Origin: an uncultured Gammaproteobacteria bacterium
GTDB taxonomy: Bacteria > Pseudomonadota > Gammaproteobacteria > CAYGKN01
DNA: 47,923 nt
Direction: 5' to 3'
NCBI GenBank assembly: GCA_964350565.1
Contig: CAYGKN010000001.1
Span: 1-47,923 of the forward strand
Shown: positions 40,154 through 47,923 of the stretch, piece by piece
Numbering within the stretch: position 1 is the first letter of the stretch
Layout of the letters: every line of letters begins with the position of its first letter
Position numbers and translations under genes: made by a program
The notes under the pieces: model-generated
Told to the model about the DNA's origin: nothing
Database searches by the model: none
Seen by the model: only the letters and a program-made list of their open reading frames with translations

Positions 40154-41236
40154 TCACTGCTCCGTCACCACATACCATCCAGCTTCTTCATAAAACTGCA
40201 ACGCACAACTCCCTGAAGCATAATCCGCTAGCCCCTCATCTTCAGAAAAACTCACTGAGTTAAAACCCACGCCACAACGAGCAGCCATATACTCTTTGGC
40301 CAACACTTGTTGCATCTGATTTTTGCTCGTTGCGGGAATTCCATAAATATCTTTCAGCAAATGAGGGAAAAAGCCCAATTTCCCCCAAGCTTTTTTTTCA
40401 ATGCCTCGTCCACTTCCATACGGAGTGGTAATCCATAATCCAGGCAAATAGACTTCTCCTCGAGTGAATGCAGGGATACAATATTGCGGAATTTGAGACC
40501 ATAATCCCAAATCGACCAACTTTTCTACCAAACATAGATCGATCAACACCTGTTCTTGTGCTCTCGCCTGTATGCGCAAACGGGCTGTTTTTTTCTCATT
40601 GTCATACGACAATAATCGAGTACGGACTTCCCAATCGATAGAAAAATCCAACGGCAACTGCATCCAACACGATTCAATCATCACCGGATAAGCCACCCCA
40701 TTCACCGGCACCTCCTTTGCCCACTGATAGAGTGTGGTGTGCGGAATCCCATGCAATAAGGCATCCATCGTCACATGCTTGGAAATGGCATTGCCATGCA
40801 CTACATGCACGCCGCCCTGAGGACCTTGCTTCCAATGACTCGCCACCTGAAACGCCTTCCCATGAAAGTAACTCAAATAACGATTTTCATAACCCAACAA
40901 CCCCTCTAAAACCGGAAAATCATCCAGTTCCAGCTCGGCTCCCCATTCACATTCCCCCCCTAAAAATACCCGTTTTCCTTGACAAGCCCCCCATACTTTG
41001 GCCCGAGAAGTCTCGATGGATTCGAAAGACAATCGATACTCACAAGGCTTATCACAGAGTAACCAACCCACCACCATCCCTCCATGGAGTCGAATGGCAC
41101 CTTCATAACCATCAAAAGCTTCCTGCAACCAACACAACCAACTCATCATAGGCAAAGAAGGCCGTGTGTAAGTCGGACAGTGATCTAAAATCCAAGGCTC
41201 TTTATGGGGGTCAAGTACATGCCTAATCTCTTTCAT
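40154..41236 (-). CDS. Hypothetical protein, possibly a PKS-type double-hotdog (DH-like) domain with a ~150-aa C-terminal extension; last gene of the pfa-like cluster
   Basis: The ORF is continuous from 41302; the start is uncertain (ATGs at 41299, 41266 and 41236). There is an N-terminal His-containing segment (WILDHCPTYTRPSLP) and a DxxxH motif (MDALLHG). It overlaps the stop of the upstream DH-DH gene. The function is not established. Confidence 0.55.
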   Translation of the reverse strand: MKEIRHVLDPHKEPWILDHCPTYTRPSLPMMSWLCWLQEAFDGYEGAIRLHGGMVVGWLLCDKPCEYRLSFESIETSRAKVWGACQGKRVFLGGECEWGAELELDDFPVLEGLLGYENRYLSYFHGKAFQVASHWKQGPQGGVHVVHGNAISKHVTMDALLHGIPHTTLYQWAKEVPVNGVAYPVMIESCWMQLPLDFSIDWEVRTRLLSYDNEKKTARLRIQARAQEQVLIDLCLVEKLVDLGLWSQIPQYCIPAFTRGEVYLPGLWITTPYGSGRGIEKKAWGKLGFFPHLLKDIYGIPATSKNQMQQVLAKEYMAARCGVGFNSVSFSEDEGLADYASGSCALQFYEEAGWYVVTEQ

Positions 41237-46443: not shown

Positions 46444-47923
46444 TCGTCGTCTCGGCTTTTTCTTTATGCGTGATTTGAGAAAACTGCAGCTGATAACGCA
46501 CACCGTTACGAATCATAATGTCGCTCACGTCCCCTCCATGTTGCAGCTCTTCTAAAATGAATGCAGAAATTTGCAAAGAGGTATGTCGTCTAGCCGCAAT
46601 ATCTAATGATTTAATGCTCATGTGTGGCCATTCTTGTTTGGCCACTTTGATTAACCCATTGACATTCGAGAGCCCCGATCGAGCAGAAGGATTTGCAGAA
46701 ATTGAACCATTGCTATCTAAAACACACAGCCACATTTTTCCAGGGTGCGATTGAAAGTGATCCAGTAGGGCAAAATGGGCTTGCATGAGTTTTGACAATT
46801 CCAACAAATTATCCACACGATTTAATCCAAACAGACTAATCACATTCTGTGCATTTTCTGGCAAAGTGGAAGATAACTTCACTGAATAATTCGCAGACTG
46901 CAATGCACTCTGTAATTTCAAAGAGACTTCTAAATCATCCGGAATAATATGAATCAATGCCGATGCGTCGAAATACTTGGGCACTTCTTTGACATAATGG
47001 ATGGGCACCAATTCTGCCAAATAACCCACACTTTGATCACTCTCTTTGACTGTGCTTGGAGTGGATTGAGAGATGCTTGAGACAGCACTGCCTCCCACTT
47101 GTGCATCTCGACTCAAATAATCAATGATCTCTTGCAGGGTATTGAGCGTGGCCATCTCCATCGGATCCACTTCTGGTAGGCCTTCACACTGCTCTTGCAC
47201 CGCGGCTAGAATTTCTACACGCTTGATCGAATCCACTCCCAAGTCCGATTCTAAATGCATATTCAATTCCAACATGTCTTCCGGGTAACCCGTTTTTTCC
47301 GCCAGAATCGATTTCAGTTGAGCCACCAAAGTCTCTTGATTCACCCCCACGCTTGGTGCGTTCTCCATGACTGGAGGAGTCGAAACTTCCCCCTCATCCC
47401 GACTTAAATAATCAATAATTTCTTGTAGGGTATTGAGTGTGGCCATCTCCATCGGATCCACTTCTGGCAAACCTTCACACTGATCTTGCACTGCGGCTAG
47501 AATTTCTACACGCTTAATAGAATCCACACCTAAGTCGGATTCTAAATGCATATTCACTTCGAGCATATCTTCAGGGTAACCGGTTTTCTCTGATAAAATG
47601 GATTTCAGTTGAATCACCAAAGTCTGTTGATTCACCCCCATGCTCGGTGCTTTTTCAGCGACTGAAGGAATAGAAACTGCCCCTGCATCCCGACTTAAAT
47701 AATCAATAATCTCTTGTAAGGTGTTGAGTGTAGCCATCTCCATCGGATCCACTTCCGGCAACCCCTCACATTGCTCTTGCACCGCAGCCAGAATTTCTAC
47801 ACGCTTGATTGAATCCACCCCCAAATCCGATTCCAAATGCATATTCAATTCCAACATGTCTTCGGGATAACCCGTTTTCTCAGATAAAATCGATTTTAAT
47901 TTTTGAATAAGGGGTTCTTGATT
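46436..47923 (-). CDS. PfaA-like multidomain synthase, 3' part only (5' end outside the window): tandem ACP domains followed by a KR structural-subdomain-like region
   Basis: The frame stays open to the window edge: the revcomp of 47858-47923 reads NQEPLIQKLKSILSEKTGYPED, the tail of another ACP unit. There are three full LGVDSIKRVEILAAV phosphopantetheine sites. The post-ACP segment ...WLCVLDSNG....GLSNVNGLIKVAKQEWPHMSIKSLDIA resembles the non-catalytic half of PKS/PUFA KR domains. Confidence 0.85.
   Translation of the reverse strand, partial: NQEPLIQKLKSILSEKTGYPEDMLELNMHLESDLGVDSIKRVEILAAVQEQCEGLPEVDPMEMATLNTLQEIIDYLSRDAGAVSIPSVAEKAPSMGVNQQTLVIQLKSILSEKTGYPEDMLEVNMHLESDLGVDSIKRVEILAAVQDQCEGLPEVDPMEMATLNTLQEIIDYLSRDEGEVSTPPVMENAPSVGVNQETLVAQLKSILAEKTGYPEDMLELNMHLESDLGVDSIKRVEILAAVQEQCEGLPEVDPMEMATLNTLQEIIDYLSRDAQVGGSAVSSISQSTPSTVKESDQSVGYLAELVPIHYVKEVPKYFDASALIHIIPDDLEVSLKLQSALQSANYSVKLSSTLPENAQNVISLFGLNRVDNLLELSKLMQAHFALLDHFQSHPGKMWLCVLDSNGSISANPSARSGLSNVNGLIKVAKQEWPHMSIKSLDIAARRHTSLQISAFILEELQHGGDVSDIMIRNGVRYQLQFSQITHKEKAETTNG
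47095..47923. repeat. Near-identical 291-bp tandem repeats encoding the ACP units (2 full units, 1 truncated, and 1 partial at the window edge)
   Basis: The protein period is exactly 97 aa (MLE(L/V)NMHLESDLGVDSIKRVEILAAVQ(E/D)QCEGLPEVDPMEMATLNTLQEIIDYLSRD...). The DNA copies differ mostly at third positions and in the linker. Confidence 0.9.

Follow-up and report, generated by a model that had tools for sequence, protein, structure and literature searches.

Can a polyunsaturated fatty acid (PUFA) synthase of the Pfa type still work once the ketoreductase (KR) built into it has gone? The question is raised by five tightly packed minus-strand open reading frames (ORF1 to ORF5, positions 40154-47923) on contig CAYGKN010000001.1, of which positions 1 to 47,923 form the stretch of DNA analysed here (the window). 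Pfa-type synthases attract study because they make PUFAs and because they yield specialised lipids, and to our knowledge one integrated KR serves every cycle in all those that have been characterised. A first reading of the window, made from its letters alone (the sequence-only reading), had described the locus as a pfa-like cluster with an atypical gene and domain order. Its kinship with PUFA synthases is confirmed by tandem acyl carrier proteins (ACPs), a PfaC-type ketosynthase (KS) and paired FabA-like dehydratases (DHs). The anomalies that prove to be real are ones to which that reading gave too little weight, namely a deleted catalytic KR, a shortened chain length factor (CLF) and a missing acylglycerol-phosphate acyltransferase (AGPAT). 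What is surprising, on comparison with related sequences, is that the catalytic KR has been lost so precisely, with the structural half of the domain and all of the dehydratases kept.

The ORF1/ORF2 junction and the catalytic ketoreductase

The visible part of ORF1 carries at least three tandem ACPs in units of 97 residues (PF00550 in three stretches, E=2e-35), which match the PfaA model TIGR02813 at positions 1215-1506. They are followed by a tail of 214 aa that contains no NADPH motif; it reads IIPDDLEVS where the glycine-rich loop would be expected, and a Pfam scan of the tail gave no KR match. Residues 43-196 of the tail align with residues 27-186 of a 750-aa KR-DH protein (BLASTP E=3e-11) from cluster L003, which belongs to a Chlamydiales metagenome-assembled genome (MAG; GCA_031292375.1), and the tail also matches the KR region of structure 6ULW weakly. 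The aligned stretch of the L003 protein is its structural pseudo-KR, as the sequence-only reading had proposed for the ORF1 tail; the GGARG nucleotide-binding motif comes after this stretch, at about residue 211. An alternative placement of the tail on the catalytic KR, given by MAFFT, was rejected in favour of the pseudo-KR assignment obtained by pairwise BLASTP.

Comparison with the same protein shows how much is missing. Residues 7-218 of ORF2 align with its residues 481-722, the PS-DH region (E=1e-10), and in the window a mere 68 nt separate this alignment from that of the ORF1 tail. Nothing in the window corresponds to the relatives' residues between the two (approximately 187-480, GGARG...YAMAN). 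The ORF1/ORF2 junction has therefore lost about 290 residues, the whole catalytic KR subdomain, and the ORF1 stop codon and the ORF2 start codon lie exactly at the scar. Among the relatives this is the best-conserved part of the KR-DH protein (48-57% identity), and tblastn with the relatives' KR, enoyl reductase (ER), AGPAT, patatin and phosphopantetheinyl transferase (PPTase) proteins found no further match in the 47.9 kb. Because the residues are absent rather than shifted, the gap is a deletion and not a frameshift, and the integrated catalytic KR of this PfaA homologue has been deleted with its structural half retained. A frameshift origin of the ORF boundaries, which the sequence-only reading had itself raised, is thus rejected for ORF1/ORF2 and is unneeded at the other junctions.

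The five coupled ORFs described in that reading all exist, three of them with a corrected start (Table 1). ORF2 begins with the ATG at 46443, giving 246 aa and not 266, and ORF5 with the ATG at 41236, giving 360 aa and not 382; the start of the 808-aa ORF4, the ATG at 43649, has a GGAGG site upstream. At the ORF1/ORF2 junction the ATG of ORF2 lies over the stop codon of ORF1 in an 8-nt overlap (ATGGATGA). ORF2 and ORF3 overlap by 4 nt (ATGA), ORF3 and ORF4 are separated by 11 nt, and ORF4 and ORF5 overlap by 14 nt, where no homopolymer is present. The junctions are compact and, from their layout, of the coupling type. No internal stop and no frameshift was found across the 7.8 kb.

This map agrees with an independent assembly. 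The Logan contig ERR3534981_256397 (L009, run ERR3534981) matches window positions 44328-47866 at 100% identity and spans the ORF1/ORF2/ORF3 junctions with identical sequence, and identical ORF2, ORF4 and ORF5 products are also recorded from the Logan assembly. The window is the complete NCBI contig, which ends at position 47,923 inside the ACP repeats of ORF1; the Logan contig is shorter than the window and also breaks off inside ACP repeats. Run ERR3534981 is public and provides a handle on the missing 5' half of the cluster; a literature search for its accession gave no match. Within the visible repeats, TRF reports a period of 291 with 2.7 copies and 85% matches. The ACP copies differ at 24-32 synonymous but 7-11 non-synonymous sites, with dN/dS of 0.03-0.05 at dS of 0.75-1.5 (p < 1e-10). 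The ACPs have been under strong long-term purifying selection.

Table 1. Features of the Pfa-type cluster and of its 3' edge, by position in the window
Feature	Position	Strand	Basis or remark
Possible IS30-type transposase N-terminus remnant, 64-aa ORF	39385..39579	-	PF13936 HTH_38
Two inverted REP-like palindromes (CCCGCTTTCGCGGGAATGAC type, translating to 'VIPAKAGI')	39977-40038		
17-nt tandem repeat (GCAACCCTCAGCAACAG), five copies	40040-40135		
ORF5, stand-alone PKS-type DH (DH4 homologue), 360 aa	40154..41236	-	HMMER, AF2, Foldseek
ORF4, FabA-like DH2-DH3, 808 aa	41223..43649	-	PF07977, FabA structures
ORF3 C-terminal part, shortened CLF-like region, ~214 aa	43661..44305	-	alignment, 6RIW
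ORF3 N-terminal part, PfaC-type KS2	44306..45706	-	PF00109, PF02801, PF16197, 6RIW
ORF2, PKS-type dehydratase DH1, 246 aa	45703..46443	-	PF14765, BLASTP
ORF1, partial	46436 to beyond 47923	-	495 visible codons: tandem ACPs and pseudo-KR tail
ORF1 C-terminal tail, linker and structural pseudo-KR subdomain	46436..47102	-	BLASTP
ORF1 ACPs, three 291-nt repeats	47103..47923	-	GVDSIK phosphopantetheine site in each

The remaining domains and their relatives

Pfam, BLASTP and structure matches bear out the earlier calls for the three ORFs downstream of the junction: a PS-DH in ORF2, a KS with a partial CLF in ORF3 and a FabA-type DH-DH in ORF4. ORF2 matches PF14765 (E=1.6e-5) and retains both the H(x8)P histidine motif and the LDGGLQ aspartate motif. 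ORF3, of 681 aa, keeps the KS residues Cys184, His319 and His354, and its best solved relative is the KS-CLF of Moritella PfaC (6RIW, E=6e-62). Against all eight aligned relatives, the first 35 or so aa and the C-terminal portion are missing from the CLF part; it aligns to 6RIW residues 523-701 only, and the window contains no equivalent of residues 674-898 of P0130, a fused relative. By these alignments, the shortening of the CLF is specific to this locus. ORF4 matches PF07977 in four stretches (E=5e-85), which make up two double-hotdog dehydratase/isomerase domains, both with the HFxxDPxMPG motif and its catalytic His. It is the best-conserved part of the cluster, at 45-48% identity to the DH-DH proteins of relatives.

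ORF5, previously left as a 382-aa unknown, is now identified. It has no Pfam or NCBIfam match, and a word-indexed protein search returned only ORF5 itself; an exhaustive HMMER search yielded 264 relatives. In the multidomain proteins P0130 and P0132 the region matched is flanked by the two FabA domains on one side and the AGPAT that follows on the other, and in the DH-DH protein P0122 and that of L001 it forms the C-terminus. Several relatives have ORF4 and ORF5 as a fusion, and here the two lie one frame apart; stand-alone homologues of 360-450 aa exist as well and begin at the same motif. Eight of 13 aligned family members match PKS_DH_N and six match PS-DH, and ORF5 retains all 12 invariant family residues, including DHxPT, FHG and LLDxxxH. 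It comprises a double hotdog of about 270 aa and then a C-terminal extension of about 90 aa. An alignment-based AlphaFold (AF2) model reached a pLDDT of 88 and a pTM of 0.84, and was used in place of a single-sequence model with a pLDDT of 33. Foldseek matched it to the DH domains of CurJ and MlnB (E ~1e-11, TM up to 0.69 on the target). ORF5 is a stand-alone dehydratase of the polyketide synthase (PKS) type, homologous to the DH4 of myxobacterial Pfa3. In Pfa3 of Minicystis rosea, mutation of the catalytic His of DH4 alters the PUFA product spectrum (PMC6731297).

On sequence and domain order, the cluster is assigned to the Type L / myxobacterial type of Pfa synthase, a known kind with a variant layout. 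The sequence-only reading had measured it against marine pfaABCD(E) clusters (Shewanella, Moritella), which turn out to be the wrong yardstick. Tandem ACPs, a KS-CLF and paired FabA-like DHs are common to both, but the window has no pfaB, no downstream pfaD and no catalytic KR, its genes are split and it has an extra DH4. Type L clusters carry an ER at the 5' end, then pfaA and a fused pfaBC with KS-CLF-DH2-AT, where AT is an acyltransferase (Shulse and Allen 2011; PMC3098273). With these the window shares the sequence clade of its KS-CLF and DH-DH and the lack of a separate pfaB; its split pfaC, its incomplete KR and the lack of a terminal acyltransferase set it apart.

The likeness in order is close to the pfa1-3 system of the arachidonic/docosatetraenoic acid (AA/DTA) type in Minicystis rosea, in which Pfa2 is KS1-AT1-ACPn-KR-DH1 and Pfa3 is KS2-CLF-AT2-DH2-DH3-DH4-AGPAT (PMC6731297). 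From the ACPs onwards the window has the same series (ACPn, (pseudo)KR, DH1, KS2-CLF, two FabA-like DHs, DH4), and a pfaB gene is absent from both. Unlike pfa1-3, it has no catalytic KR, AT2 or AGPAT, its CLF is shortened, and the domains lie on five proteins and not on two. The DH-DH of the window is 45-46% identical to P0130 and P0132, which are uncharacterised proteins with the Pfa3 architecture KS-CLF(-AT)-DH-DH-DH4-AGPAT.

The closest sequences found (KS-CLF 33-36%, DH-DH 45-48% identity) come from three MAG clusters: L003, L004 (Gammaproteobacteria, GCA_013697705.1) and L001 (Logan SRR21362674). As in the window, the split in pfaA falls behind the ACPs, KS-CLF is encoded apart from DH-DH and the KS-CLF proteins are short (770-800 aa). 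Unlike the window, these clusters have an intact KR-DH1 of about 750 aa, and an ER and an AGPAT between KS-CLF and DH-DH; in L003 there is also a PPTase upstream, which the visible window does not have. The overall order is KS-AT-ACPn / KR-DH1 / KS-CLF / ER or patatin / AGPAT / DH2-DH3(-DH4) in L001, L003, L004 and L005, and ER / KS-AT-ACPn-KR-DH1 / KS-CLF... in L006, L007 and L008. The nearest KS-CLF proteins are 33-38% identical to ORF3, 38% being the highest value among the matches listed. The closest named relatives found are Myxococcota/Polyangia, and Xenorhabdus and Serratia are not among the matches listed.

The fabclavine/zeamine clusters (FclC/D/E, Xenorhabdus) also contain PUFA-synthase-derived machinery, in the form of PUFA-like polyamine synthases, and there the PKS-type DH of a PUFA-like synthase is active in cis or in trans (PMC9113149). 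They differ from the window cluster, near which there are no aminotransferase, thioester reductase or nonribosomal peptide synthetase genes. Xenorhabdus, in which this machinery is studied, is an entomopathogen, and the window also bears insecticidal-type Tc toxin genes.

With these relatives as the reference, four of the five features that had been listed as atypical are typical of the clade. The lack of a pfaB gene, an ER that is not downstream of the DH genes and a PKS-type DH4 after the FabA domains all belong to the clade, and pfaA and pfaC are naturally split in its short-read MAGs. In the window, the overlap of ORF2 and ORF3 leaves no gene, and hence no pfaB, between them; 3' of ORF5 come repeats, then a 5-formyltetrahydrofolate (5-FTHF) cyclo-ligase gene and purB, with no pfaD. 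The statement that no pfaD-like ER lies downstream therefore holds, and it has a simple explanation in the 5' position of the ER in Type L. A complete lack of an ER is not a safe claim, since the contig stops within ORF1 and the relatives place their ER upstream: in relatives the ER and PPTase genes sit 5' of pfaA, which in the window would be beyond the contig end. The less reduced polyene or hydrocarbon product that had been proposed is for this reason unsupported. AGPAT (PF01553) was found neither in a Pfam scan of the 26 larger window ORFs nor by tblastn. Three things are peculiar to this locus: its catalytic KR is deleted, its CLF is shortened, and there is no ER or AGPAT among the visible genes.

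Searches for the rest of the cluster and for near relatives of its host were negative. An exact-protein look-up with ORF3 gave no record, and a scan of GTDB genomes with ORF3 peptides gave no close relative. A 23-nt pattern from the ACP repeats had no match in genome contigs and none in metagenome contigs, and among the proteins matched by ORF1 there was no near-identical ACP fragment from a sister contig. Of 18 window proteins queried against a collection of 15 billion, 13 are on record, and all 13 are singletons at 90% identity. The lineage thus appears to be essentially unsampled and without close sequenced relatives.

Working synthase or relic

We favour, with a probability of roughly 55%, a working synthase in which a gene past the contig end, or FabG of the type II fatty acid synthase (FAS-II), provides ketoreduction in trans. 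Four dehydratase modules have been retained intact, and since these need beta-hydroxy substrates, some KR would have to act; it is for this reason that the reading is preferred. The window would then hold the 3' part of an iterative Type L / myxobacterial Pfa synthase, collinear with pfa2 and pfa3. With the catalytic KR subdomain deleted, one protein would have come to end in ACPn-pseudoKR and DH1 to stand on its own as another, while the CLF was shortened, DH4 became free-standing and no AGPAT or ER gene was left among the visible genes. The 5' half of ORF1, beyond the contig, would supply KS1 and a malonyl/acyltransferase (MAT), with the tandem ACPs carrying the chain and KS2 and the CLF remnant elongating it. 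DH1, DH2-DH3 and DH4 would act on beta-hydroxyacyl-ACP, and the FabA-like ones may introduce cis double bonds. Reduction of the keto group and, where required, of the enoyl group would take place in trans, through genes past the contig end or FabG/FabI of FAS-II. The product is expected to be a long-chain unsaturated acyl chain, whose structure and release route are not predictable. In keeping with function, the Cys-His-His of the KS, the His and Asp motifs of DH1 and DH4 and the His motifs of the FabA-like domains are all intact, and the cluster agrees in codon usage with the window's housekeeping genes.

Several observations weigh against this reading. The KR in trans is hypothetical, and there is no gene for a short-chain dehydrogenase/reductase (SDR) in the window. 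The pseudo-KR is the most diverged part, with 23-27% identity to the relatives against 36-43% among them. Losses of the catalytic KR, of part of the CLF and of AGPAT/ER are three independent events, which together resemble erosion. The KR-less layout was not found in any relative, and none of the other KR-less ACP-pseudoKR proteins sought in databases was confirmed. Finally, the 5' half of the cluster lies outside the contig.

Three candidates for such KR-less proteins were discarded: P0388 and P0364 are long-read frameshift fragments with the KR in the next ORF, and P0271 is adjoined by a KR-DH gene. Several short, seemingly novel Pfa fragments from L002, L006, L007 and L008 (ENA ERZ2503xxxx / ERZ21831004) are frameshift artefacts of long-read metagenome assemblies. 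Being ACP-only, KR-only or half a KS, the artefact fragments inflate the apparent architectural diversity of Pfa proteins in protein searches.

The erosion just mentioned is the basis of the strongest rival, an eroding relic in which the cluster is being lost, was recently inactivated and makes no lipid. We regard this as possible, though less likely than a working synthase. The domain that is missing is the defining catalytic one, the CLF is short at both ends against 6RIW as well as the eight relatives, AGPAT and ER lie inside the homologous series of L001, L003, L004 and L005 and are missing here, and both the disproportionate divergence of the pseudo-KR and the failure to find a second genome with this layout speak for decay. 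The state of the reading frames argues the other way: they are free of stops and frameshifts, at each deletion boundary a start codon lies within a few nt of the preceding stop, the ribosome-binding site before ORF4 is strong (GGAGG), and every catalytic residue that was checked is intact. The strong purifying selection on the ACP copies points in the same direction, though it would mainly predate any recent inactivation.

A bolder form of the working synthase is a 'dissociated' Pfa machine, in which the built-in KR was discarded, the pseudo-KR was kept as a scaffold and a trans-acting FabG or a discrete SDR took over, with a product unlike known PUFAs. It would combine four dehydratase modules on three proteins with a minimal CLF. 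This picture is doubtful; if true, it would connect type I Pfa synthases with type II FAS by a path of evolution not seen before.

It is improbable that the cluster encodes a distinct synthase wholly without KR and ER, acquired horizontally and making a less reduced polyene, hydrocarbon or ketide lipid. Neither a KR catalytic domain nor an ER is present in the visible 47.9 kb, but the four intact dehydratase modules need beta-hydroxy substrates, and the relatives' ER lies 5' of pfaA, past the contig end. As for horizontal acquisition, the sequence-only reading had drawn it from debris of insertion sequences (IS) and of repetitive extragenic palindromic (REP) elements at the 3' edge. The REP-like palindromes are there and the 17-nt repeat is real, and both occur nowhere else in the window. 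The IS part comes down to a single ORF with a sub-threshold match to HTH_38 (E=0.11, 12.7 bits where the cutoff is 27). In GC, GC3 and codon usage the five ORFs lie inside the spread of the window's housekeeping genes, from which they are indistinguishable; recent horizontal transfer has no support from composition. Least of all do we expect an assembly or sequencing artefact, with the ORF boundaries or the KR gap due to misassembly or indels in a canonical pfaA/pfaC: the contig does terminate in repeats, and ORF4 and ORF5 are in different frames where several relatives have a fusion, but the Logan sequence and products are identical, a gap of about 290 codons is not a frameshift, and ORF4/ORF5 lack a homopolymer while stand-alone DH4 homologues share the starting motif of ORF5.

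The rest of the window and wider meaning

The other genes of the window are chromosomal housekeeping genes such as prfC, rsmI, dnaG, tig-clpP-clpX-lon, lptF, mreBC and gatAB. Positions 1-21787 hold tig-clpP-clpX-lon-lptF in this order, divergent mreBC / gatAB, and yqeY-dnaG, and the solved structure nearest to the window's ClpP is that of E. coli ClpP. These two features, the gene order and the likeness of ClpP, suggest a gammaproteobacterium-like chromosome. An MFS transporter gene at 20540-21787 (+) overlaps the stop codon of gatB by 4 nt; it appears from this arrangement to be co-transcribed with gatAB, and would be an unusual partner for that operon. A RhuM/Fic-domain protein is encoded beside housekeeping genes at 415-1389 (+); its GC of 0.376 is the lowest of the window, and it is possibly a mobile or effector gene.

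Wedged between gatAB-MFS and purB is a pair of genes for a Tc (ABC) insecticidal-type toxin, at 22030-37132 (+). TcA, of 2622 aa, has ABC_toxin_N, neuraminidase-like and TcB-binding domains, and 2 nt further on comes a TcB-TcC fusion of 2410 aa with SpvB and TcdB_toxin_midN, in which the C-terminus gives a weak match to a Pput2613-like deaminase.

Whichever reading of the Pfa cluster applies, most of the oddities claimed for it are removed, ORF5 is assigned to the DH4 family and the cluster is placed in the Type L / myxobacterial clade. If it is a relic, it would offer a clean snapshot of how such clusters decay, through domain-sized deletions at gene borders. If it is functional, it would mean that the reductive step of a Pfa synthase can be outsourced, and that the pseudo-KR has a scaffold role independent of catalysis; both would be useful for the engineering of Pfa enzymes.

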